Assembly (NCBI GenBank): GCA_964187785.1
Contig: OZ076409.1
Span: 42,968,001-43,032,000 of the forward strand
From: Amphiscolops sp. MND2022
Taxonomy: Eukaryota
Direction of reading: 5' to 3'
DNA length: 64,000 nucleotides
Below, piece by piece: positions 1 through 64,000 of the stretch. Position numbers and translations under genes: made by a program. Position 1 is the stretch's first letter; the number at the start of each line of letters is the position of its first letter. Under the pieces are notes generated by a model that was not told the DNA's origin, ran no database searches, and saw nothing but the letters and a program-made list of their open reading frames with translations.

Positions 1-153
1 GAGAACAATGATTGATTGCGAAGACTTTCAGCAACCTCACACAAGCAAACATTAACCTAAGAGGTCACCCTTGAGACTTTAACAAGACGCCCGCTAGGTA
101 CCAGGATATTTTCCGCCTTGTAAAAAAATTTGGAGAGGGCGAGACTCGAACCC

Positions 154-294
154 TGATATGATTGAAAACACTTTAGGCCCATAATGTTTTATTCAACAAA
201 AACGAACCATTATCTAAAAAGGAAAAAAAACAAAGCATGTATAGTTCAGACAATGGAAAAACCTTAAAACCATTTAAGAGACCACTATACCACA
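154..294 (-). repeat. 3' LTR of the Gypsy element
   Basis: Direct repeat of 5387-5526; reads TGTGG...TATCA on the minus strand. Confidence 0.93.
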
Positions 295-314
295 ATCTCC
301 CCTGCTGGAAAGAG

Positions 315-2760
315 TTAGAGATCAAGTTTCTGAGGAGGCCTTCTCATTCTCTGAGATCTCCTCAAACAGCTTTCTTCTTTGCTTTGATTGTCAGAAACTG
401 GGACAATTTCTTCCTGGGATTCTGCTGGAGGATCCACTGTACATACATCAGGGATTTCATCCACACAATCGTGGTTTTGACTATTAAAATATATCCTGTC
501 CTCGCTCATCTTAGAAGTTGAAACGTCTCCAACAAAGTTCTTCGAAGGAGACGAGTATGGTGCCAAATCCCTCAAAGAAACACTACTATCTCTCCCGTCG
601 GGATATCGAATGCGAGCACATTGGGAGTTCGCTTCCAATAAATTAACCTTTGTAACTAAGGGATCATCTTTTGAATTCCGAATGAATCGCCAAAGAAAAA
701 CAAGTCCAGGTAGGAGAAGCCATGAGGGGAAGGAACTTCCGAACGCCGACTTTCGCTTATGAAGAAAAATCCTCTCATAAGGGGTTTCGTTTGTGGCCGT
801 TGAAAGTAAAGAACGAATAGAGTGAAGCGCATCGGGTAACACCAAGTTTCCATTGATTTAGAGCTATTTCTCTTGATTTGAGAGCAAGCCTAACCGCAAT
901 CCAAATTAACCCGATGAAACGCTCTTATTGCCTATTCCCTTCAAGATTGTATGGTGTAGTGCGACTCATTGAAATTCCTCGCTATGGTAAATACGTTCTC
1001 AATTGCAATGACATGAAAGAAGGACCTCTGTCACTATGAACATAGGACGGCATTCCAAACAAAGACAAAAGCTCATTAAAACAGTGAATAATTGTTTCAC
1101 TAGTCATATCTTTACACAGAAAAGCAAAGGTGAACCTTGAGTATTCATCAACTACTGTCAATATGTAGCTATTATTAGATGCACATTTAGGAAGGAGACC
1201 CTTAAAGTCCACACAGAGACGCTTGAACGGTTGTGTAGCTTTGATGAGAGTTCTATCTTCAGCCTCGAAGAACTGGCGTTTCAACTCAGAACAAACAGGA
1301 CAAAAAGAACAAACTTTTTGAACTTCTTCCAAAGAAAATGGTAAACTTCGTGAACGAATAAAACGATACAGCCGGGTAACGCCAGGATGACACAACGATT
1401 CATGCAAAGACTGAGTAGTAGAAATAGAGGACACTGCGCAAGACACACGCGAAAAGGCATCAGCGACAGTATTTTTGTTGTCCGGTGGGTGTCAATGTCA
1501 TAATTAAAAGCAAGAAGCTCCATCCTCCAACGTTTGATTTTATCATTTTTGAACTTGCTGTGTTTGGTTGCGTCAAACATAACTCACGGATCGTTGATCA
1601 GTGATAAGTGTGAAATGCCTAGTGGATAGCAAATGAGACCACTTCCTGACTGCCTCAATTATAGCTTGAGCTTCTTTTCGACTGCCGAATACTTCAACTC
1701 CGAAGCTGAAAGAGCTTTGGACATAAAAGCAACGAACCTCCCGTTTTGATTCAAGGAGGCAGAAAGAGCGACATCTGATGCATCAGTCTCAACAACAAAG
1801 GGAACATGATCTTCAATGGACTGTAAGGAAACTTTCGCGAGTTCAACTTCAAGAGATTGGAATACATCAAGGCTTTTTGTGATAAAGGAAAAGAAGTAGA
1901 ACGTGAAAGAGGGTAAATTTTATCCGTGAATTGGGGAAGCCATTGAGAATAGTTACCAAACAATTCGAGAAATCGCTTCAAATATTTTATTGTCGAAGGA
2001 GGTTTCAGATCACGTAACGTCTGTAGTCTATCGGGACCGGGTCGAAGGCGACCTTGTGAATTTTCATAGCCTAAAAGTGTAACAGAATCTGTTCGTTGAT
2101 TTGACTTGACATGATTGAAAGTTAAATTGTACTTTGCTGCAGCTTCCAACAATCGAGCTAGTTTGTCATCATGATCCTTTTCACAAAAACCTCCGACCGT
2201 TAAATTATCCAAGTTGGCTAAGGTTCCTTCAAATTTTTCTGTCCTATTGAGTTCATTCACTTTTCGCTGGAAGGCAGCAACCGCATTAGTAGGTCCAAAA
2301 GGAAGTCGCTTAAACTGGAAAAGCTTACCATATGCTTCGAAAGCCGTGAAAGGTTTGTCTTTATATGCAAAAGGAATCTGATCATAGGCACTCTTCAAAT
2401 CCAATGTACTGACGACTGAAAAGTTAGAAAGTTCCAGAACCATGTCGTCAATTCTATGGACTGGGTAAGCATCTAGAATCGTGAATCTATTTATCGTTTG
2501 GGAATAGTCAATGACAAGGCGCTTTTTGTGTCTCTCATCTCTCGTAAGAACCACTTGCGCTCTCCATGGGGAATTACATTCTTCAATTATCCCTGTGGAC
2601 AATAGTTTATTCACTTCTTCTTTGATGAAAGCCTTGCCATCCCATGAATATCGTCTAGATTTATCAGCTATGGGCTTCACATCTGGTGTGAGTATTGTAA
2701 GCAGATCAGCAGGCGAAATGGATGCTTCTGCCAACGCACATTTCTGAGTTGGATTGATTG
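315..2760 (-). pseudogene. pol: pol (RT, RNase H, integrase), frameshifted
   Basis: RT: SPWRAQVV, RLVIDYS, LDLKSAYDQ, LPFGPTNA, NLDN (decayed YxDD). RNase H: V(E)TDAS. Integrase: HESLCHPG..CxxC, VDFKG, VVDEYSRF, HSDRGPSF, TNETPYER. Confidence 0.92.
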
Positions 2761-2793
2761 CTCTTCGCTGCATGTCTGCAGTTCGATTGATTG

Positions 2794-4240
2794 CCCTTGT
2801 TGAAACTGCTTGAACTTTTTGCATGTACTTTAATGTTGCCAGCAACGTTTACTATGATTTTCTAAATTTCTTACGAAAACATTAATGCGGAAATATTTAC
2901 CTGTTGTATTCGAATTTTATCAAGCTCCTTGAAAGATTCTTCAAAGATTTGGCGGAAATTTTAAGCACTGAAGTTTGGCAGGTTTCATCAAGAAGCAGTT
3001 TTAATTTTAAAAGCAAATAAATCGCTCTCATTTTAACAGCCATTTTAATGCAAAATAACTTCAGTCACGTGATAAACTGCAAATTAGCGTCATGTTTAGC
3101 GCCCTATTCGAGAAGCGGTGATCACATCAGATGAGTAGTTGAGAAAACAAAGTGTAATTACAAAGTGATCGTGTCGGTGGGTGATGAAGTGGTATTTTTT
3201 TTCAAATTTAACTGCAGTACCCAGGTTTTCAATCTTTGAGAATCTGTAAAGATCTGCAGGATTTTTTCTGCAGGGTTCTGCAAAGATCGTTACACTGAAT
3301 CTTGAAGATCCATACAGATCTGCAAGATCTTTACAGAAGTGTGCAGATCTGCAAGATCTTTACAGAAGTGTGCAGATTTTTTTAAAGATTTCTGCAGAAA
3401 TATGTTTTTCTGCAGCTTCTAAGGAACCAATATACTGATTTTTGGACTTCTTCAACTACTTCATCGAGTATTTTAGCTAACCTAGGGTCAGTCAGTTGAA
3501 ACTCTCCATCACTCAAAAGTCTTGAGAAGGAAAATTTGTCCCCATCACGAAAAATTTTGTGACGGGAGAAAATGCAGTTTTGGTAAAACACGGTAATTTA
3601 TCCATTTCACTCGAACTTTCCAGAAGTGATTGTTGAACTTTAAGAGGTTCGTTTGCCATATTGACTTCGTTTTGGCCGATAAAATTTGACATGTGGCAAC
3701 CATCTGGGTTGGTCGATGTGTTGATGAAAAGTTGTTTTTGTCATATTTCCTTAACATAGTTTGTTGGAGTATTTTTAGTAATTGCTGTTAACTTGGAATA
3801 CGTTATAGTAATTGTTTGGCTCTGTAAAGATCTGTAAAGATCTGCAAAACTCTACAGATCTGTACAGATTGCTGCAGAAAAATATTTCATCATTTTGCCA
3901 TAAATGAGACTTCTCTCCAGTTTTAAACACTTTTAATATTCGTTTGACATCTCTGTGGGGTTTTTATTGTATTTTTACGTACGTCAGTTTTTTTTCGAAT
4001 CTGCACATATCTGCAAAGATCTGCAAAAATTCTGCAGATCTGCACATATCTGCAAAGATCTGCAAAAATCCTGCAGATCTGCACGGATTCGCAAAGATCG
4101 AAAACCTGGGTATAGAAAATGCAGTTATTCTACAAAATTTACTCTCTAAATTACCACTGAATTTTCTAGGTTTTATAAACAATTACCCTGCATGCAGGCC
4201 TGCAGCATGTAAAAAGTTCCTTGGAGTTTCAACTAGGGTG
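2794..4240. mobile_element. Non-autonomous TIR element (MITE family A) inserted in Gypsy pol
   Basis: Imperfect TIRs of about 32 bp (CCCTTGTTGAAACT..AACTTTTTGCATG / CATGTAAAAAGTT..TTTCAACTAGGG), flanked by TGATTG(C) duplications. Related copies at about 11786-12140, 26600-26940, 30602-30800 and 54190-54723. Confidence 0.8.
3215..4114. mobile_element. MITE family B (CAGT...ACTG termini, Tc1/mariner-like) nested in MITE A
   Basis: TIR CAGTACCCAGGTTTTC / GAAAACCTGGGTA. Subterminal arrays of TGCAGATCT. Absent from the MITE A copy at 54190-54723; inverted copy at 10752-11609. Confidence 0.85.
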
Positions 4241-5348
4241 TGATTGCATCTTTAGCACCTTCAAACTTGAAAGTAACTTGTTTCTGTAGGTTCATAAAGT
4301 CTAACCCCAAAGGAATATCGCAACACAGTGATTTGAGAACAATGACGTGAAAATTCTTGTACACGTTTCCAAAGGCTTTATTTGAAACAATGGATTGCCC
4401 CAGAACAACTCTCGAGCAATCTGTAGATGCCATCTGTACTTTCCGCTCTATCAAATCAACGGGAATAGAATGCTCTTTACCAAAATCCAAAACTTAGAAA
4501 ACTCATCGAGTTGCCGGAATCCAACAAAGCATTAACGGAAATTCTTTCAATAGAAATGACTGTGGTTGACTGAGCTAATCTGGTATGGGGAGGAACCGCG
4601 GCAAGGTGGAATACTGCGGCTGAAACATTTTCCTTGCTTTTGCTGACGTCCCTAGACTTACACGCTTTGGCGAAATGGCCCTTTTGGCCACAGGAATTGC
4701 ATACAGAATTCAACGCTGGACAGTTTTTCCTTGTCGAATGCGTTGCGCCACCACAAAACCAGCAGGACTTCTTCACAGAGGAAACTGCAGCGATAGTAGT
4801 CTCCAGTTCAATAGTCGCAGCGGCAGATACATCATAACTTGGTTTGGTGTAATATTCCAAATTCTGTAAAGCAACATCTTCAGCACGAGCCTGAGAAACA
4901 GCATTCTCTAGCGTAAGTGACGAATTTTCCAATAGCCTGAGGACGAAAGACCGTTTATTAAAGCATCTCGAACCGATTTTTCTCGGTAAACTTCAGCAGT
5001 ACCGCTTTGAAACTTGCTATAGCGACTAAGTTCCTTGAGGCTATGAATGAATTGAACCACCGATTCTCTGGGCTTTCGTTTCCGTGTAGCCAGAAGATGA
5101 CGAGCAAATATAATGTTCTTTTCTTTGATGAAGATTGCCTCCAGAGCTTTTATAGCGTCGTCGTAATTCACTTTATCAGAAACAGCAGGTGCTAGAAAGT
5201 TGGTTAGAACAATAAGTTTGTTTGTATTTTGAGTAGGCAAAACATCGAGAAAGTTTTTGAACGTTTGGTGCCAGTGTTTCGATTCCTTTGAAGCGTTCGG
5301 GGAATCTGGACTGCAATCAAATCGTTCGGGACGTGAAATTTTGTCCAT
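4241..5348 (-). pseudogene. gag: gag and aspartic protease, frameshifted
   Basis: Zinc knuckles CWFCGGATH..C and CNSCGQKGHFAKAC. Protease ALLDSG and LGLDF motifs. Confidence 0.9.
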
Positions 5349-5386
5349 TCTGACTCGAGCCTCGAGATAGTTTATGTTGAATAAAT

Positions 5387-5526
5387 TGATATGATTGAAA
5401 ACACCTTAGGCTCATAAGGTGTTATTCAACATAAACGAACCATTATCTTAAAAGGAAAAAAACAAAGCTTATATAGTTCAGACAACGGAAGAACCTTATA
5501 ACAATTTAAAAGACCACTATACCACA
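5387..5526 (-). repeat. 5' LTR of the Gypsy element
   Basis: Direct repeat of 154-294; TATATAA on the minus strand at 5469-5475. Confidence 0.93.
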
Positions 5527-8500
5527 AGCCCACTATATACTGCCTGATAGGCGAATGCACTACCATTCGTAACAAACTAATTGAAGTGGAGACTTTGGAG
5601 ATTTGGCACAATTTGGAAAAACGCAACAGAGATGATAAGTTTCCTACCCCATGCAGAAAAAATTGTGGGGGCAGACAACTAAAAAAATTCATTGTACAGA
5701 AAACATCGAAAAATTTTGTTGGAATTTTTAATTTAGAAATTGTTCTACAAAATTTTCCGATTTGTCCCACAGTACCCAGAAAGACAATCGGGTCCGTATC
5801 TTCAATCATATATATGATCATATACATCATCTGTTATGTTTTCATATAAATAACCGAAATAATAGATCTGAAAAACATTGTTTGCAATAACATATTTGTT
5901 CTTGACATCATGTATATGATTTTTGAAGTAACAGTTGGAATTTTGGTTCCATGTCCCTCGTTTACCGCGAACTGCGAAATAGTATTTTCGAAAGCCAAGA
6001 CAGAAAAAACGCATCTCCGTGGAGTCTATTCGGACTCGATTCATTGTATAGTAATTTCATTTATGTTTTCATTTCACTTAACGAAGATTTGTGAACATTT
6101 AAACGAACTAAGTTTTCCTTTCAAAGTCATGTTTTCAAATTGAAAATCTTTTTTTTATTTTTTCATACAAACAGAGGGCTTCCAAAAAATTTTTAAATAA
6201 ACATACTTTCAGGGTTTATATATATCATCACTGATGGGTCCCTCTCAACTCGTAGAACGCTTTGACCTTGCAAAAAACAAATAAAATAGGGGTACTTATC
6301 GCTGAATTAAAAGTAAACATGAATGAGATTAGCGTAAAATCGAAATTTAGTGTGTCTTTAAAAAGCTGTTTCCAGTTAGAATTAGTTTTTTTCTGCTCGG
6401 AAGCACTGCCTGATTTTTTTAAAAAAAAACAAGAAGTACTTAAAAGGTGAAATGTTCAAAAGGTGTGGGAAAAGATGACATGAAAACCGAACTAATCAAA
6501 CCATTTAGGACAACTTCACTTCGTCAAACTAAATTTAAAAATTTGAACTCATATTTATTAACAGTTTTGGACTATCTAGCTTGATACGTCAAATCATCAG
6601 CCAAACCAGCAGTTTTTCAAGGAAAACGAAACTTCAATAGACTATTCCAAGTTTTAATTCTTCCAAAAGTGGCCTTTAATTCTTATCAAAATAATCGAGA
6701 CTAAGAAACAGAATATGTGCATCATTCCTTTGCCTGTGATTTTTTTCTTTATTTCTGAAGTACTGAACTCGCTGAGTTATCTGTTTGGAAAGGGAAGTAA
6801 TACTGACGCTTTCAGATAAACTGTACTCTGAAGGAATTTGTCAATTGATAATGGTTCCGTGCCTTCGGAAATGTACTGTTCTAATCAATTTCAGACCTTA
6901 TTCAATCTCTTGGCAATTGAATTTTGTTTTATAGCATTCTGCGCAGCTCAGATCATGGATTTTCATTATATTCATTTATCTATATTTTCAGCTAGTGTTT
7001 AGCCTCAAGTCTCATGTCTGCCACTAACTTTCAGAAACGTTTATTTTGGAGCCTTTCCATAGAATTTTTGCTGATATCGTTGGTTTAAAACACTTTGAAC
7101 TCCATGTTATGTACTCCAGAGTGCCTTGTCCCCAGTGTAAGAACAATGTAATTTTTCAGAAAAACATCACATGTGACAAGTTTTGCTTACGAATTCCATT
7201 CTCTATTTTAAATGTTATATGATATTTTTCGTAGTGCTATTCCCAAAAGCTTTCCTTGTTGTATAAATGATTCGTAAAGCGCTGTCATCCAAAGTGCATG
7301 GATGTTTCATGGATTCCCACAGCATGGCTTGGCATAAATTATGGATGAATCAATTCAGATTTACAAAACCGGTGGTTTCAGAAAGAAGAACCTTGAAAGA
7401 TGATGATTTTGAAATATCATGTATAATTTGTAGTTAGAAACGTAATAAATTCGACATGGTTTCAATTTTTTGATGTCATCATAAAAATTTATGATTCAAA
7501 ATTTTGATTTAATAACATATTTTTGTTGGATATATCCATCAAAAATGTAATTAAATCATAAATTTGTATTCTAGAAAAAAATAGATTTCAACGACTAATT
7601 TCAACAGTGATTTCTATTTTTTGCATATTCCAAGTTCCATTAAACTCAAAGGAAGTCTGCGTTGCCAAAGATATCGGGAAGTGACGAAAACTCGAGAACA
7701 TTGATCAGACAGTAAGTTCAACCTTGAAAGCTCTTTAGCAAAACTTCAAAATCGGTTTTGCTTGAAATTTTTCTGAGCCATCAGAATGATTTCGTGGAAC
7801 GAAAGAAACTTTGCCGGAAGCCGCGCCCTTGATATTATGAGATAATTATAAGAATATAAACAGCAGTTCAAAAGAACAGTTTTTGTTTAAAAGTTCCGTT
7901 AAATTCTCTTTGGTGCAAAAAAGAAACTCTAGTCATGAAAGTCCTCTTCAAAAGTGTCTTCAAAAGTGGACGTTGTGTATAGAAACAATTCGTCATTTTG
8001 TCATCCTTGATTTGAACCTACATTCAGTGAGAGACCTCAAAAAATGGAAAATTCGTCAGATTTGATGGATTGTTTTGTGCAGTGCTCACTTCTTTTGTGC
8101 AATAATATAATGTTCTTTCTTCTCAATAACCTCGAGGTACCTCAAAAATGGCGGGATTTGTTTTTTGAAACTTGCAAATTGGTTTTTTATACTAAATGAA
8201 ACAATTTGTTGATGTCATTTCAGACGAACTTAGTTTCAGTTTTTCCAATTTTTCCTCAACCTGAGAAACTGAGATCAACACTTTTTCGTTCCCACTTCTT
8301 TACAGCCACCCTCCCCCTTTTGAAGATGTTTTAGCCACCCTCCCCCTTTAGGCGATCAAGACCCATTTTAGAGAGAATCTATTCTGTCAATTTCTGTCGA
8401 TTTCTCTACAATCGCTTTTGGAGTAACTGAAGAACGGAATTGAAAATGAAAAGGACTCATCGCGTGTGTCCCAGGCGGCCGCCCGTGATGGGAATATTTA

Positions 8501-10751: not shown

Positions 10752-11609
10752 CAGTTCCCTGGTTTTCGATCTTTGCGAATCTGTGCAGATCTTCAGGATT
10801 TTTGCAGATACGAGCAGATCTGCAGAATTTTTGCAGATCTTTGCAGATATGTGCAGATTCCAAAAAAAACTGACACCATCAGAAACGCAATAAAAACCCC
10901 ACAGGGATGTCAAACGAATACTTAAAAAGTTTAAAACTGGAGAGGTTTCTCATTTATGTCAAAATAATGAAAAAATTTTCTGTAGCAATCTGTACAGATC
11001 TGTAGAGATTACAGATCTGTACAGATCTTTACAGAGCCAAACAATGACCAATAAATTACCATAACGTATTCCAAGTTAATAGCAATTACTAAAAATACTC
11101 CAACAAACTATGTTGCGGAAATATTACAAAAACGACACTTTATCAACACATCCACCCAGAAGGTTTCCAGATGTCAAATTTTATCTGACAAAACGAAGTC
11201 AATATGGCAAACGAGCCTCTCAAAGTTTAACAACCACTTCTGGAAAGTTCGAGTGAAATGGATAAATTACCGTGTTTTACCAAAAACCGCACTTTCTCCA
11301 GTCACCAAAATTACCGGGATGGGGACAATTTTTCCTCCTCAAGAATTTTGAGTGATGGAGAGTTTCAACTGACTGACCTTAGGTCAGCTAAAATACTCGA
11401 TAAAATAGTTGAAGAAGTCCAAAAAGGCAGTATATTGGTTCCTTAGAAGCTGCAGAAAAACATATTTCTGCAAAAATCTTCACACTTCTGTAAAGATCTT
11501 GCAGATCTGTATGGATCTTCAAGATTCAGTGCAACGATCTTTGCAGAACCCTGCAGAAAAAATCCTGCAGATCGGCACAGATTTGCAAAGATCGAAAACC
11601 TGGGTACTG
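10752..11609. mobile_element. MITE family B, full copy
   Basis: CAGTTCCCTGGTTTTCGATC ... GATCGAAAACCTGGGTACTG followed by TA; inverted relative to 3215-4114. Confidence 0.88.
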
Positions 11610-50596: not shown

Positions 50597-53500
50597 CGTC
50601 ATGGTTTGGTCCCTGCATGTGGGGACGAGAGCAGTTATCAAAAACCAAACCAACGCGAGGTGGGGAACAACTCACTGAGGGACCAAGGTTCACACGGAGA
50701 ACGTCACACCTCGCACACCCGAAAACGTCGGAGAAAAGCCGCCTTCGACGTCACAAGCCAGGCGATAACGTTGGTTTTTCGGTGGAGGGACCAGGTCAAC
50801 CTGCCTACTGGGCCCTGCTAATCTTGGAGGCAGGAGATGTGGAACAAAACCCCGGGCCTACAAACAGCTCGATATGCAACAAAGAGTTCATCGATGAGAA
50901 ATAAGCAGCAGTATGGTGCCACCTCGGAGGTTGGGTCCACCTGAAATGTACACATCTCAAGAGGATCAGACAGTGGGTCGCAGATTTTGTGTGTCAGAAG
51001 TGCGAGTGGTGCACTAAAGCTATGTCACCGGCGGAGGACCCCACACCCGATCCAGAAACATGAGACGAGAAAAAGAAACGACGACAAAACGAAAAAGCAG
51101 AACGAAGAAGGAGAAGGAAGCACATACGGCATAAAAATTGGGGGAGACGCGAGCCAGCCTGAAAGGAAGAGCAACAGCAACTGAAATCTGGACCTGAAAC
51201 ATACAGCGGGCCAGAGTAGCCTTCCCGAAAAGGAACAGGTTCTGCGAAATCCTGAAAACGATTGGCAAGAGCGCTGCGGAAGTGGTAATGTTAACAAAGA
51301 TGAAAGAAACTGAAACCAGAATGAAGTGGATCAAATCAGAAGACCTGTATGGCGTCCTTGTTCACGGAAAGAAAAACGGGGTGCTGCTTAGAGACGACTG
51401 GGGCAGTTAAGTGGAAAGAACAAGGATGCAAGCGTTACTGTGGAGAAAGATGCACATCAGTCGAAGCGGACGGTACTGGTTTTATAGCAATATATCAGCC
51501 TCTAGGAAACAGCGACGTGGTGGAGTTCGCCGCGTACCGCGAAGAGCTGAACGGCCTAATCCTGAAGTGCAAACAAAAGACAAAGCTGATAATTGGATGG
51601 GGATCTGAACTCGAGCGTTGGTAACGACACAAAGAGAGAAAAGGACGAAGTGGCTGGTCCTTATGGTCTCGGCTCAACGAACTCGGCTGGCGAAAACCTC
51701 ATCAACTGGTGTCACGAACAAAACCTGTCCTTTGTCGAGTCTTTCTTCAACTACAAACGGCGAAGCACGTGGAAATGCCCGGCAAGGGGCACGTGGCATG
51801 AGCTAGACGAGTTGCTAGAGAAACAGCAACAGAGGAGCAGACTAGTGAAGATACGAGAGAACGATATACGAGTTGCTGACGACGACAGACAACACGACAA
51901 AGCGCTCCGAAGACAGAGCCACGGAAGCACCGAAACAACTGGAAGTGAGCATCAGCTACATAGAATTCAAACACGAACTAGCACAGATGAAGGACAGCGG
52001 TATAGACGGAGTAACAGTAAACGCAGTAAAGTCTCTGACAGAGAGCAACAAACACAAACTATTCCAATGCATGTTGAAATTACTGGACAAACCGCCGCTA
52101 ACATTCCCCGACGAAACCAAAGAAGGATGGGTAGTGCCGCTGCATAAAAAAGGCTCCCGAAATGATCTCAACAATTACAGAGGCGTATCTCTGCTGCCGC
52201 TGATTAGCTGCATAGTAGTCAAAATTGTCGCCACAAGAATAAGAGTATGGGCAGAAACACTGGATATACTTGGGGAAAACCAGAACGGTTTCCGCATCGG
52301 CCGATCAACCTGCGACGCCACCCAGATAGTACTCCGAATAGACGAGGAAACCCGCAGAGTTCTCGGATACTGCGAAGTAGTGAAGCAGGGAAGGAAGGTC
52401 TGAGCAGCGAATGGATACCAGCGCGAGGCCTGAGAGAGGGTTGCGCAACCTCACCAACCCTGTTTAATATATACCATGCGGATGCCATGAGAATAGCACA
52501 ATCCAAAAGAAAAGAAAAGGCGAAAGAACAACAATAGGAGTGCGGACTGACATGGACATGGACACCTGGTAACTGCTTACCGGCAGCTGAACCATCAAGA
52601 ATTCTACACAGCAAGAAAAGCGAGACCATAAACATAACAGACACACTGTTCGCAGATGACTCAACGTTAGTCGGATGGACCGATGAACTGGCGACTGGGA
52701 AAGAATTGGTCAAAGAATCCATGCTGGAGTTCGACGAGAAATGCCACGACGGCAAAGAAGATTCCATAGCCTTCGGGACGGTAGGCGCCCAATCAACAAG
52801 AATGCTAGGCACCCTCCTGGGCTGGATAGAGGACTGTAACGCCAGAATAAAACGAGGTAACGCCGCCTGGGCAAAAGTACGCAAATGGCTATGGAGATCC
52901 ACCTTGAGTAAACGAACAAAAGCCTTCGTAATCCAAGCAGTTGTTGAATCAACCATGTTCTTTGACGGTAACGCTCGCTCGTGGAGACTTTCGGACATCA
53001 AGAAACTGCAGAGCGTGGCCGACCGATGCTACAGATTCATATGGAACAACGGGAAAAGCAGGGCTTTGATAAGAATGCAGGAAGAAAAAACCAACAGCTA
53101 TGAAGTACGGCGACAGCTTAACATCACGTCCATACGAACAAAGATCGAAACAAGATGCCTAGAAAGGATTGGACACGTCCTTCGGATGCCCAACAACCGT
53201 CTCACGAAACAAGTCGTTTTGGGGCACTGGAAAAAAGAACGCAGGTCGGAAGGAAGACTGAACGGAGGTATCCTAAACTATTGGAGACGGATAGTGAAAG
53301 AAACCGGCGAGGACTGGACTAACTCAGAAAATTCGTGCAAAGATAGGAAGAGTTGGAAGGCAATCATTTCAAAACTAAGAAAATTCCTCAGAGAATGGGA
53401 AGAATCTATGCGCAAACACACGCGAGGAGAAGAAAAAGCACAAAAAACGCAAATGAGAATAACAAAAGATCTGACATGCCGCTGGGAAGGGTGCGGAAAG

Positions 53501-53933
53501 AAATGCAGAACAAAGACAGGCCTAGTACAACATGAACGAAAGACACAAAGAGTTGACAAAAAAGCACAAATGCCCAAAATGTAGAGCAGAATTCAAAGAA
53601 TACACCAACCTGACAAATCATGTAAAAGCGTGCCGAGGCACAGTAAGAGGAACATGTCCAGACTGCGGAAGAAAAGTGCTACCGACAAACATGGCCACAC
53701 ACAGACGAGAAAACTGCCCAAACCAAAACCAACAACAACGGCAAAAGAGAGACACGAACCAAATAGAAGGAATAGAAATCAACAGATTCACAGGAAAAGA
53801 TGAACGACGATCATGCCCTGAAGGAAGCGGGGCCTGGATCACAGCGAAAAACATGGCCCGACACCGAAATAACAACTGTCCTCGTGGGAAGCAACCAAGG
53901 CCCCTGGAGGGCGTAAATGGAAAATGATGATGA
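50597..53933 (+). mobile_element. RTE-like non-LTR retrotransposon (2A peptide, PHD, APE, RT, C-terminal zinc fingers), decayed with internal deletions
   Basis: 16-bp TSD TTAGTGGAAGCCAGCT (50581-50596, 53934-53949); (ATG)n 3' tail. APE: GDLNSSVG, TWHELD. RT: NYRGVSLL, QNGFRIGRST, GLREGCATSPTLFNIY, LFADD. Also GHVLRMPNNRL and several CxxC..H zinc fingers. Confidence 0.93.
50809..50859 (+). other. 2A-like (StopGo) ribosomal skipping peptide
   Basis: WALLILEAGDVEQNPGP matches the D(V/I)ExNPGP consensus. Confidence 0.9.
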
Positions 53934-54189: not shown

Positions 54190-54723
54190 TACCCTTGTTG
54201 GACATGCTTTACTTTTTACATGTACTTTAATGTTGCCATCAACTTTTATTATGACTTTCTAAATATCGTACGGAAACTTTAATGCGTTTATATTTCCCTG
54301 TTGTCGCCAACTTATATCAAGCTGCTTTAACGAATCATCAAAGTTTTGGCAGCAATTTCAAGCCGTGAAGTTTTGCAGGTTTCAATATGCATCAGGTCTA
54401 ATTTTAAATGAAGCTGAGACGTCAACACTTTTGCCGCCATTTCAATGCAAATTAACTTCATTCACAATGTAAATAGCAAACTAGCGTCATCTTCAGCGTC
54501 CTATTTGAGAAGCGGTGATTAAATCAGATGAGTATTTGAGAAATCAATGTGTGAATACAACGTGATCGTGTCCGTGGAAGAAGTGTGAAATATTTTCAAA
54601 TTTAATTGCAGTAGTGGAAAATGCAGTGTAATTGTACAAGATTTACCACCGGAACCTTGCTGAATATTTTCTAGGTTTTTTAAAAAATTACCCTGCATGC
54701 AGGCCTGCAGCATTTAAAAAGTT
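54190..54723. mobile_element. MITE family A, copy without the nested insertion
   Basis: Colinear with 2794-3214 plus 4115-4218. Confidence 0.8.
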
Positions 54724-58504: not shown

Positions 58505-61500
58505 ATGTCTTCGAACACAGGTTGGTCTGGTTTTCATATATTGAACTAGTTTAGCTTGATCAGGGCTAGACTTTGTTCACAATAAGCTTCCTGTTCCCAC
58601 TAATAAGCGCGTGATAGCTCATTTTGTTCAAATTCTCAAGTACTTCCGGAAGATTTCTAATGCGGTAAAATGGATTCTTTTCGAGGAAGCATACCGCCAA
58701 ACTTTATCTCTTTTCGTTTAGAGAATCAAACAACCGAAGTTGTCGATGTACCAGCCGAACCTACTGTTACTACTTCAGCAGCTAGTCCCCCAACCGAAAC
58801 TGGCCCACGAATCCAGAATCCCGGTGTGTCCCACGAGCTATCTCTGAGCCGATCAGAAGACGTCACCTCTACTCACAGTGCTGACAGTGACCCAGATGTG
58901 ACATTGTATGCTGAATCCATGGTCCAACGAATGCAGCAGGCACAACTCATCACTGCCCAAGAGAATGATCAGCTCGAATCCGCCCAGCTACATGGTCAAG
59001 AACCAGTCAATGATCCCTCGGGAGTTATGTCAACAACGACTGAGAACCGAAAGTCGAGCACTCCCATTCAGTCAGATGAGGAGGGAATCCAGGAAGCTGA
59101 TCTGTCTGCTTTGGAATCTGCTTTGAGAGTCATTGAGGCCTCTGCGTCTCAGTTGCCCGAACTGAGGAACAGGGACGAGTCAGACCCTTTAGATGGAAGC
59201 GGGGTTCAACCCAAGACCGATGAAGATAACGCCTCGTCCGTTTGTGACGTACCCTCACTCCCTGGCGGTGACCCTAAGATACGATTCACTGAAGAGTTGG
59301 GTGAAGAAGAAGAGTCTACTGGAGAGTCAAGCAGACTGGTCCCTGTGGAACTGTACGGACGTCCCCCATTCGGCCCTGAATCTGAAACTGAATGTGAAAG
59401 GGAAACTAGTTCCGAATGCCAGCCTTTGGGAACTGGAAAAACGCGGACAGCTGGGGGAAGTTCAAGTCAAGACAAACCCCCGGAACTGTCGGGTCGCAGT
59501 AGGGCCATCCTGAAGGAATACTTCGATTCTGCATCCCCAATTAGACTTCCTGTCGGGCACACTACTATCGCCCTCACAGAGCTTCAAATGTATCACCTGC
59601 TGCGTACGCTCACAGACGAGACTCTCCGCCAGTCTTTCAACACCATGGAAAGAATGGTAATAGACGCTGTCCGAGGCACCCCGACTGCTCTCCCTTCACG
59701 CACCTCCCATTTCCAACTCAAGAGAAGGGCACAAACTCCCGGACCTGGGGCTCAAAGTGATTCTGAGTCGGACAGTGACCTTGCCGGAACAGCCTCAGAT
59801 CAGCCAGAATCAAGCAGCGACGACTCTGGTGGGGCTTCTTTCTACGAGGAGAGTGACAGTGCTACTGAGATGGACTTGATAACGAAGTCCTTCAAACAAA
59901 CTCCTTCTCGACCTCTAGTCGGAGGGGTCCAGGCGGACACGTCCAGTAGCCAACAGCATATTTGGCCAGATACTGAGGGTTCCAGTAGTCAGGATACCAC
60001 CTTATATGAAATGCGCGAACAGGCTCAAAAGGACCAACCAGAAGGACACTCTAAATCGAGGAAGAAAAAGGGCAATAAAAGACTTTCCAGGAGAGGTGTA
60101 CCCATGAGAGAAGAATTCTTCTCTAAGATAGGATGGACGAGGTCGTTCATTTCCGGGCCGGCCGATCCCTTGCATAACCCGCTTATGGTCTGGTGCCATA
60201 TTTGCAAGAAGAATTTTTCTATAAAATCAAAGGGGCCCTACGAGATTTTGAGACACCACCGGACAGATCGCCATCTGAGACGTGACCAGAGGTGGCGTTA
60301 CGAACACCTGCGCAGCGTTGACCCAGTCAGTGGCAAAGTGCAGCATCGAGTTAGAGGGGCCAACGGCAAGATCTTGACGAAGATCGAACTGGCCAATCAG
60401 CTGCCCAAATTCATCAAAGCTGAACTGGTGGACATAGGGGAGAGGTTCCCTTTCTACGAGGACTTCATCCGGGGGACCACTACAGCCTTGGTCACACAGG
60501 AAGCGAGAGTGAAAACTCAACTTTGCCTGGTGGGCGATTTCATAAAGACTCTGGGTGACTTATCCGTCCTGAGGAACATGTGGTCTAGGATGGGCGCCTT
60601 TACCAACCACCAAGCCACTGTGTGCGATTTTGATTGGAGCGAGGAACGCATGAGTGTAAGTATATTCCTGGTAATCCATCCACTAATTTGAGAGTTTCCT
60701 TCTAAAATAGTTCCATTTCCTTTTCAGGCCATATTCCAACACTTCTTCACTAGCGCCCTGACCGACATTGCTGAACATGTCACTGCTGAACAATGCTTTG
60801 CTATTGAATTTGAGGCTGCCGGGATATATCGCTACATGAGCGTCAAGTTTTGGAGGGGTCATGAGCTTTGCCGGGTCTTCATTTGCCGAAGTTCCCTTCC
60901 CGCGACTGACGTGACTGGCGAACTGGGGTCTCTAGCCCGATTTTTGTCAGCTGTCTCGACCCAACCGGATGTGGTGGCATGCTCTGGGTGCCACGTTGAT
61001 TTCGCAAAGACGATAGACCAGTCCGACTACTTCCCACAAGGAGTCCAATGCTGTTTCCGCTTCGAACAACTATCATTACCTACTTTGATGCACAAATCCA
61101 AGTATTCTGTCTTTGGCCAAATAGACTTCTTCTCCGTCCTCCAGGCTCTGATGGTGTCTCTGGGTGGCTCTCTGACTGAAGAATGGGCAATGCGAAGTCC
61201 TGAGCTTACTAAAGTAAGTATTTTGCTTCGTCTTTCTTTTAGTAGTCGGGGGTTGGTTAACTTAGGTACCATAACGAACAGTCCCTAATCGGCTAAATTG
61301 GTTTTAACAGGCAGTGACCAGTTTCAAACTCGACATCAGGACTCTGCCGGTTCTCTGTACGGAGCTGGCCAAGGAGTGGAAACCCATACTCCGCTATTTG
61401 ACCGAGCATGCCCCCATTCAAGGAGGTCAAGGAGTCCGTGGCAGGGTTAGATTTGCTTTCATTCCCTTAATGGTATAATCAGATGGTTTCATAATAAGGT

Positions 61501-62877
61501 CTTCAGCCTTTCTCTAGTCTACCAAACTCTTTGTGGAACCTAACGTACGTTTTTCCTTTAAGGCACAGAGCTTCGAGTGGTCCCTAATCTGTGACGAATT
61601 TTTCGTCGTCAAGTTGGAGTTCTTCAACAGGCTCGTGAGCGACTGTAAGTAGTTTACCTTTAGGGCAGTCATCCAGAGTTTTACTCCACTCTAGGTTTTG
61701 CTTTGTGTTTCCAGACGTGGCAAGTTTCCCAGTGAACCTCCAACACAGACGTGATTCCTCCTTTTATCTATGTGGAGAAGTTTGCCAATTCTTAAGTTCA
61801 CTTTGCTCTCGCGTCTATACTCCTGATACGGTGCCTCTAGCGAATGCCTGGTTCCTGTTGCTGCGCTTCCAGACCAGTGAGGCCACTTTCTTGGATGGAG
61901 AGGAATACCTGATCCGTTTGAGGCTCTCTCATAAGGTGTCATCGGCCAGCAAAGCAAAAGCGGAAGGAATGCATTTCGGGAAAAAATCGGAACGCCCAGC
62001 GATCCTGGCTACTACAGAGACTGTGAAGTCCGATTTCATCAAAGACAGTCAGCAATATATACAATACCTGATCAATGAGATCCTTCGGCAGACTGGGCTG
62101 ACTACTAACATTGTGAAGGGGATGGCCGCTTTCGACCCTCTTATCCTGTTCAAGCGACCTATGGAAATAGCCCTGCGGCACTTTGACATTCTCTACAGTA
62201 CCTTCTCTCTCCGTTCTTGGGTCTCCAGTGCTAACGAGTCCTTGTGCCGTGATCAATACATGCAGTTACTTGACCATCTACGTACAGCCTATGACCCAGA
62301 TTTCGACATATCGAGTGTTTCAGCTGATCTGATTGAGTTCCTGTCCGAGTTGGAATTCCTCCGTAATCGTAGCTGTTTGTTCTACTTATTCAAGTTGTGT
62401 TGCTTGTGCGCTACGACTGTCAGTCACACGTACCCTGATGTCACCTTCGGGACAATTTCCACTGCTGGACGTCATAACAGATTGACCGACGTTATTCTTC
62501 CCAGCCAAAGTTACGTGGCTAACGTGCGCGATGCGGTTGCTTTCTGTAGCGACAACGGGAACCTGACCAAGTTCATCGACTTTTCTTCTTCTTTCGGACG
62601 TTCTGCATTTGCCTCTGACTATGATCCTTGGACCTACGTGGACAATTTCGGACGTTCGAAGATTTATAAGTCGTTGCTGGCCTCCTACCGGACAGCACTT
62701 TCCACCCCTCAGAAAACTCTAGTCCGGAGTGCACCAGAGGATCAAAGCTCCGTAGCTGATACATCTGCTGTGAAAGCCCCTTCTAGCACTAAACGAAGGA
62801 AAATGGAACGTCGAGCTTCTCGGGCATCCTCATCGTCCACTGTTGGAGCCATTGAGCCTGGCTCATCTAAAGACTAA
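58505..62877 (+). CDS. Six-exon gene, about 1271 aa: disordered acidic N-terminus, BED-like zinc finger and hAT-transposase-like body (probably catalytically dead)
   Basis: Exons 58505-58520, 58722-60655, 60728-61213, 61311-61445, 61563-61644, 61715-62877. All five introns are GT..AG with compatible phases (1,0,0,0,1), giving a 3816-nt open frame. Finger WCHICKKNFSIKSKGPYEILRHHRTDRH. Exon 1 is the least certain. Confidence 0.85.
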
Positions 62878-63118: not shown

Positions 63119-64000
63119 TTAGTATCTGAAGTCTTCTGAGTAGTTTGGATTAGGGTTAGGCCTGAGATTATATTTCCCTCCTCTAGGGCTCAGACTTTCA
63201 TTTCTAGCATCGCTTTCGGATATTTCGGGCACGATAATATCATCCCCCCTTTTTGGAGAGGTTTGTGTATCGTTTTCATTCATTGAATTTCTTTCTGAAA
63301 AAATTTCATTATTTTCTGGTCCACCTGCCGTACTCGGAACAGAATTTTCTTGGTTTTTTGGGGAAACGGCCGGATTCGGCCAATCAGATTTGGTATTTTC
63401 TGTCACTGCAGTAGCTTTATCTCTTTCAGTGACGTCATCATCCAAGCGTTCATTCCGGCTGTGTGTCGCGTTGTCGTTGTTTAATTCTCGCGTGATTATG
63501 TAATACGCTTCATTCTCGTTTGCGTCATTTGTATTTTCTGCCGTACTCGGCCGTTCGCCGTTCGGCAAGTTAGTTGGAATAGGTTCGTTGCCTCGTGTAA
63601 CTAGCTGTTCGCCGAAGTCTGTTTCCCACGTTATGACGTATAAATCGTCTTGCGGAATGACAATTTCTTCGTCTGGCTGCAGACGTTGTTCTCGGAAATT
63701 GTCCTCAAGTGGTTGATTGGGAATGAACTTTTTAAGGCGAATACGATGCAAAATGTGAGTTTTGTTTGTATTGATCCTTCGTACTATGTAGTTTTCATTT
63801 GGTAAAACCTTTTGGACTACAAATGGTCCAACCCAACGGTAATCGCGGAATGGAATTTTTGATCCTTGATGATCCGCTTTCGGCTGTAAGACGAAACAGT
63901 AATCATTCTCCTTCAATGGAGCAGCTTTTGCTTTGCGGTCGTAATATTCTTTGTATTTGATGTACGACTGCATAATGTTCTGCTTCGTTTTGTCAATTAG
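63119..64000 (-). CDS. pol: Gypsy pol C-terminus: integrase GPY/F region and long acidic tail (5' partial)
   Basis: KEYYDRKA..RWVGPFVVQKV..NYIVR..HRIRLKKF; ends KYNLRPNPNPNYSEDFRY*. No disruptions. Confidence 0.9.
   Translation of the reverse strand, partial: LIDKTKQNIMQSYIKYKEYYDRKAKAAPLKENDYCFVLQPKADHQGSKIPFRDYRWVGPFVVQKVLPNENYIVRRINTNKTHILHRIRLKKFIPNQPLEDNFREQRLQPDEEIVIPQDDLYVITWETDFGEQLVTRGNEPIPTNLPNGERPSTAENTNDANENEAYYIITRELNNDNATHSRNERLDDDVTERDKATAVTENTKSDWPNPAVSPKNQENSVPSTAGGPENNEIFSERNSMNENDTQTSPKRGDDIIVPEISESDARNESLSPRGGKYNLRPNPNPNYSEDFRY

Follow-up and report, generated by a model that had tools for sequence, protein, structure and literature searches.

The described systems closest to the element reported here are retrotransposons that start reverse transcription with their own RNA. 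In Tf1 and Tf2 of Schizosaccharomyces pombe, the reverse transcriptase (RT) is reported to cleave the self-primer in R (PMC5341516, PMC4600332), and Tf1 cDNA is described as bearing a primer-binding site (PBS) copied from the primer (PMC11042837). In the Tf1/sushi group, three duplexes around the PBS make up the so-called pretzel (PMC10085805). Self-priming has also been predicted from complementarity between LTR and PBS for plant Tcn1 chromoviruses and for the TAR elements of Ty1/copia (Houba, Osr-1), the criterion being a complement of 10 bp or more that begins 0-5 bp past the LTR (PMC6317226). Within the literature searched, self-priming is tied to Tf1/sushi chromoviruses and plant TAR copia elements, and no description of it in a Gypsy clade of animals outside the chromoviruses was found, subscription papers and Repbase reports lying outside that coverage. 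The element analyzed here is like Tf1, Tf2, Tj1 of S. japonicus and the Tf1/sushi elements in that its PBS adjoins the 5' LTR and is complementary to an LTR stretch, in having no tRNA site and in its Ty3/Gypsy domain order (PMC4600332, PMC10085805, PMC5341516).

The window (the whole 64-kb stretch of DNA that was analyzed) contains, from position 5526 to position 154 on the minus strand, a decayed single-ORF Ty3/Gypsy retrotransposon. Its features, in the order of the element strand, are the following.

5387..5526, minus strand: 5' LTR, TG...CA, 140 bp, identical to the 3' LTR in 127 of 141 columns (13 mismatches, 1 gap)
5469..5475, minus strand: TATATAA, candidate TATA box, not conserved
5444..5448, minus strand: AGATA, able to pair with leader positions 5365-5369, not conserved among relatives
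5421..5436, minus strand: putative self-primer in the 5' LTR, of which 5422-5436 is perfectly complementary to the PBS
5400..5423, minus strand: hairpin that immediately follows the putative primer on its 3' side, 9 bp by itself and 7 bp with the duplex
5385..5386, minus strand: AT dinucleotide adjoining the LTR end
5370..5385, minus strand: PBS, leader +2 to +17, complementary to the element's own LTR, without TGG
4242..5348, minus strand: gag (two zinc knuckles; Pfam zf-CCHC) and protease, located by tblastn with P0123 (81-86% identity)
2792..4241, no strand assigned: inserted repeats between protease and RT, about 1.45 kb, nested
315..2791, minus strand: frameshifted RT, RNase H and integrase; intact relatives have no chromodomain
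295..306, minus strand: polypurine tract (...AGCAGGGGAG) and AT before the 3' LTR
154..294, minus strand: 3' LTR, 141 bp, TG...CA, with a second copy of the paired segment at 188-203 that is complementary to the PBS at 15 of 16 positions
149..153, minus strand: target-site duplication, downstream copy GGGTT (upstream copy GGGCT at 5527-5531)

The LTR boundary was set by comparison with the 3' LTR. The TG...CA LTRs, the polypurine tract, the target-site duplication and the domain order Gag-PR-RT-RH-IN (Pfam) are features of Ty3/Gypsy elements, and the best match among solved structures (PDB) is Ty3 Gag-Pol (E 9e-63). The window copy is dead; its coding region is disrupted by frameshifts, which split gag and protease into three pieces, and by the nested insertions. 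The ATG lies 38 nt past the LTR, and the main segments of the window element are 75-86% identical to P0123, which, like P0126, is an intact relative with a single frame of 1,202 residues. The insertion contains a 0.9-kb element (about 3215-4112) that is bounded by 49-bp terminal inverted repeats, has subterminal repeats rich in AGATCTGCA, and is nested in a dispersed repeat (2814-3219 and 4115-4218). A second copy of the inverted-repeat element is located at 10757-11609 (84%), and a copy of the dispersed repeat at 54211-54723. No tRNA was found in the 64-kb window by ARAGORN. Searches of window positions 1-6000 against Rfam (E up to 1) gave three weak microRNA matches, all in the inserted repeat, and no match at the leader, indicating that no known ribozyme is located there.

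Several other mobile sequences may be present in the window. An open frame on the minus strand that leaves the window (63119-64000) has a weak Integrase_p58_C match (E 4e-4) and appears to be the tail of a second, different LTR element. Fragmented plus-strand frames at 51593-53927 resemble a non-LTR retrotransposon with C-terminal zinc fingers, with a weak RVT_1 match at 51849-52403 (E 0.008). Three long plus-strand frames at 58661-62877 (676, 198, and 412 aa), one of which has a Cys/His zinc-finger-like stretch, gave no Pfam match and possibly belong to an unclassified mobile element.

On the element strand, the 5' LTR is followed by AT-TTATTCAACATAAAC, so the preliminary description was right that no TGG occurs there. 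Its claim of a 15-bp match was likewise borne out: positions 5370-5384 are the exact reverse complement of LTR positions 5422-5436, and the complement begins 2 nt beyond the 5' LTR boundary. Position 5421, which lies opposite leader +2, is unpaired in the 5' LTR. The two LTRs each deviate from the PBS at 1 of 16 positions, in different places, and the final hexamer of the paired stretch is AATAAC in the 5' LTR but AATAAA in the 3' LTR. When the LTR was shuffled with its dinucleotides preserved, a match of at least 15 bp arose in 1 of 20,000 shuffles.

Relatives were taken from the best 80 of 348 confirmed metagenome loci and from 11 loci in bacterial genome assemblies, 91 in all. Thirty-one of them extend to the Gag start, and 28 of these have a readable LTR; the unscored three are L054 and L059 (no 5' LTR match) and L071 (incomplete). 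Together with the window element, the scored set comprises 29 loci in 19 families, several of the loci being near-copies from the same assemblies. L081-L091 are eleven contigs of bacterial metagenome-assembled genomes carrying this eukaryotic retrotransposon, most likely as host contamination. L006, L011, L015, L065, L081, L082, and L084 are circularly permuted contigs with a single LTR between the end of pol and the start of gag, which represent either LTRs collapsed in assembly or one-LTR circles. No relatives were found in viral contigs in two scans, and the ESM Atlas gave generic Gag clusters only.

The related proteins number at least 881 in an RT search (E up to 1e-30), and the named sources among the best 120 RT matches are Biomphalaria, Plakobranchus, Mytilus, Trichobilharzia, Oculina, and Hyposmocoma, that is, molluscs, a flatworm, a coral, and a moth. 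RT-RH identity is 39-88% among the 18 families with enough RT, and scored loci are present in every sub-branch of the RT-RH tree (a quick IQ-TREE of clade members only, without outgroup, which includes the 3 unscored loci and 10 proteins without DNA). Chromodomain families (E up to 0.1) had no match in any of 7 full-length relatives, which supports the earlier impression that the element does not look like a chromovirus. Exact 5-bp duplications flank 7 of the 12 related elements examined. Within the clade, LTRs are 140-250 bp and leaders 16-38 nt; the shortest leaders (16 nt; L005, L010) are wholly occupied by the PBS, leaving no space for a second, tRNA-type site. In L008, L009, L024, and L037 (about 2915-3003) the duplex reaches across the Gag start codon, an arrangement that could couple priming and translation.

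The same pairing register was observed in 29 of 29 loci, with register anchors placed on the longest match, a choice that favours pairing: leader +2 lies opposite the last base of a TAAA-type motif that lies 20-67 nt inward from the end of the LTR. Ten or more perfect pairs are present in 28 loci (range 10-18), and L063 has 13 with one G-U; the length and position used earlier to predict self-priming are thus found in 28 of the 29. The longest duplex, of 18 bp, is that of L011 (about 2170-2335), whose leader behind the PBS directly repeats a 17-nt LTR stretch upstream of the primer. CA is followed by AT at the LTR-leader junction in 24 loci, and TGG is absent from the first 8 leader nt of all 29. 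In L044 and L048 the match is retained only in the 3' LTR, and L012 was scored on the 3' LTR only. L012 was also considered as a tRNA-primed exception and rejected, since its apparent TGG precedes the leader, and the leader itself pairs over 12 bp with the 3' LTR of this locus.

Covariation of the pairing across family members, named as a check in the preliminary description, is evident in an alignment of 14 sequences (A4). In the A4 helix, 95.9% of the cells are paired, 10 of 14 pairs have two-sided changes (33 such cells), and one-sided changes are absent from the 14 sequences. None of 500 shuffles, which ignore the relatedness of the sequences, was as high, and the count of pair types alone was reached by 103 of 500. 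Slid-register controls gave 24-50% paired cells. RNAalifold, unprompted, returned the same 13-bp helix and no other, the middle of the alignment being poorly aligned. In addition, the TAAA and CAATTT motifs align without gaps in A4, which provides independent support for the register. Two-sided changes were also observed between close copies (L003/L004 and L005/L010).

The pairing is specific to each family. With one locus from each of 12 families (L048 scored with its 3' LTR), pairing of leader +5 to +14 with the element's own LTR was found in 120 of 120 cells; pairing with the LTRs of other families averaged 6.5 of 10, and none of 100,000 permutations reached the observed total. Over leader positions +2 to +14, 367 of 377 cells are Watson-Crick pairs and 1 is G-U, and G-U accounts for 17 of 139 pairs in the predicted folds just downstream of the duplex. 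The near absence of G-U fits a primer that is copied into the next PBS better than it fits selection on the RNA fold alone.

Several elements of the proposed structure around the duplex were conserved to different degrees. The 9-bp hairpin of the preliminary description is present as an inverted repeat (AACACCTTA, 5400-5408; TAAGGTGTT, 5415-5423), but it has 2 nt in common with the paired segment and is therefore reduced to 7 bp beside the duplex when the fold is predicted. Among the relatives, a hairpin starts directly after the paired stretch in 20 of 28 loci. The 5-bp extension of the PBS pairing (5365-5369 with 5444-5448) can be read as written, but it was rejected as a conserved feature, pairing beyond +16 falling to half of the families or fewer; it is missing from one set of minimum-energy folds, and in another fold it appears in the MFE structure and not in the centroid. 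In 14 of 29 loci the last six letters of the paired stretch are AATAAA or ATTAAA; the remaining 15 have weaker or non-standard hexamers there (GTTAAA, TTAAAA, TTTAAA, and similar). The LTRs of L004 and L085 have another AATAAA downstream of the paired stretch, so the poly(A) signal actually used may be a different one from the paired hexamer. A PBS partner is present behind the 5' LTR only.

The position of TATATAA was as previously described, starting 39 nt upstream of the paired segment, but the motif reads TATACAT in the 3' LTR, and TATAWA was found in 3 of 19 families, a chance level (130 of 500 shuffles were as high). The RNA 5' end therefore cannot be placed from the TATA motif. A loose initiator motif occurred in 10 of 19 families, also at chance level. 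AGTT, a motif chosen after inspection, was found no more than 17 nt upstream of the core in 7 of 19 families (1 of 500 shuffles) and is missing from the window element; it hints at a start just upstream of the stretch.

We consider it likely, at a probability of about 80%, that this clade primes reverse transcription with its own RNA and without a tRNA, as judged from sequence comparison. For the LTR end to be made, minus-strand synthesis must start no more than a few bases from the U5 end, and whatever pairs at +2 is thus the primer site. The proposal of priming without tRNA outside the chromoviruses gains support from a register kept across 19 families, from the lack of TGG in the leaders and from the lack of chromodomains. 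Transcription would start in the LTR slightly upstream of the paired stretch, and the stretch would fold onto the PBS, stacked on the small hairpin that begins directly after it. A nuclease, likeliest the element's own RNase H by analogy with Tf1 and Tf2, would cut at the TAAA/hairpin junction, leaving a 3'-OH 1-2 nt from the U5 end from which RT would make minus strong-stop DNA. Plus-strand synthesis would then copy the primer into a new PBS, which would explain both the two-sided changes and the lack of G-U. Given the frequent AATAAA or ATTAAA at the end of the stretch, a possible secondary role of the duplex is to conceal a poly(A) signal, at the 5' LTR only.

A more specific version of self-priming is unlikely. 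It holds that self-priming was invented independently of Tf1 in a large animal Gypsy clade, in which one duplex both conceals the 5' LTR poly(A) signal and defines the primer. The 3' end of the primer would be made at the signal, possibly not by the element's RNase H but through 3'-end processing by the host, with an R RNA that terminated early being trimmed to the duplex.

The primer could instead be another copy of the stretch, supplied by the 3' end of the genomic RNA or by a short RNA that ended at the 5' LTR poly(A) site and was trimmed by the host to the duplex. The stretch is upstream of the likely poly(A) site and would be part of the RNA 3' end wherever transcription begins; it terminates at the signal hexamer, a Tf1-type pretzel is absent, and TATA and initiator motifs do not place the RNA start. 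Against this, fold-back in cis is predicted with a pair probability of at least 0.99 for four trial start points. Furthermore, it is established retroelement biology that cutting the 3' repeat would impede the first strand transfer. We therefore regard a primer from another copy as decidedly unlikely.

It is very unlikely that the duplex is a regulatory structure only, which masks the 5' LTR poly(A) signal while something else serves as the primer. The restriction of the partner to the 5' LTR would suit such a role, as would the standard hexamers at the end of the stretch, but these are seen in 14 loci and not in the other 15. The partner always begins at +2, the point required for priming, the 16-nt leaders have no room for another primer site, and a pure RNA structure should tolerate G-U pairs, yet a single one was counted in 377 cells.

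A host tRNA fragment, or another small RNA matching by chance, is an even less probable primer. Ty1/copia lineages are known to include elements primed by half-tRNAs without TGG (PMC6317226), but the PBS letters of the present clade vary by family (7-12 of 13 identical between families), each matching its own LTR, and covariation with the LTR would not arise in a site fixed by a tRNA. A chance match or a functionless local inverted duplication has practically no probability left: the sequence is AT-rich and 4 of 2,554 25-mers of the window have a complement of at least 15 bp within the preceding 140 nt, but 29 of 29 loci share one register with two-sided changes, and this covariation refutes it.

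If self-priming by the element's own RNA is true of this clade, tRNA-free priming arose or survived in more lineages than have been described, and with a simpler structure. Whether hairpin or self-priming preceded tRNA priming has been raised as a question (PMC3601003), and an animal clade bears on whether it is the older. Silencing by tRNA fragments is reported to act on the tRNA site (PMC7472051), a target that such elements would not offer. LTR finders that require a tRNA PBS would presumably miss them. The natural two-sided variants constitute a ready test set for the making of a primer from an RNA duplex by RT and RNase H.

The placement of the clade was compared with several known groups. 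Mag elements have a Gag double zinc finger and a 5-bp duplication, and are tRNA-primed with a PBS beginning TGG. Two zinc knuckles, short LTRs and a 5-bp duplication are present in our element and its relatives but are not specific to Mag, and in contrast to Mag, TGG was found in 0 of 29 leaders. The RT motif of the element, SPWRAQV...DYSQTIN, presumably differs from the Mag motifs, which argues against Mag. The label 'Mag-like' in the preliminary description is unverified, the Gag double zinc finger and the short LTRs being the features that fit. The likeness to Mag A extends to short TG...CA LTRs, an AATAAA motif and the lack of a conserved TATA (PMC3601003). MolGy2 is described as a large, widespread Gypsy clade outside the known clades (Thomas-Bulle et al. 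2018; PMC6238403) and is listed in Biomphalaria glabrata and Mytilus galloprovincialis (PMC6238403 supplement 3), both of which have relatives of our element. Mag C is recorded there for both of these species as well, and Cigr-1 for Biomphalaria and just one further species (PMC6238403). MolGy2 is accordingly a candidate name for the clade, by host overlap alone. The words 'PBS' and 'primer' do not occur in the main text of the MolGy2 paper (PMC6238403), and the RT motif of the element was not found in the accessible supplementary files of PMC6238403, PMC8556966, and PMC12471100. The Saci2/lennie clade is reported to have a 4-bp duplication and a tRNA-type PBS (PMC12471100); membership in it was rejected on the 5-bp duplications and the absence of TGG here.

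Compared with the Tf1/sushi elements, the present clade has no chromodomain in 7 of 7 relatives, and its duplex is 13-16 bp long, the Tf1 duplex being 11 nt. The paired stretch ends here at a hexamer resembling a poly(A) signal and is followed by a local hairpin, and the LTRs are very short (140-250 bp), the leaders 16-38 nt and the hosts of the named relatives animals. The two extra duplexes of the Tf1 pretzel were not found in 26 loci, where the longest flanking complements are 2-7 bp, and the consensus fold consists of one helix; the pretzel was therefore rejected as a conserved feature. Taken together, the element is Tf1-like by its predicted working, yet it is not assigned to the Tf1/sushi group, neither a chromodomain nor the pretzel having been found. 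From the plant Tcn1 and TAR elements it differs in lineage and host, representing a non-chromodomain Gypsy clade of animals in which the covariation between LTR and PBS has been counted.
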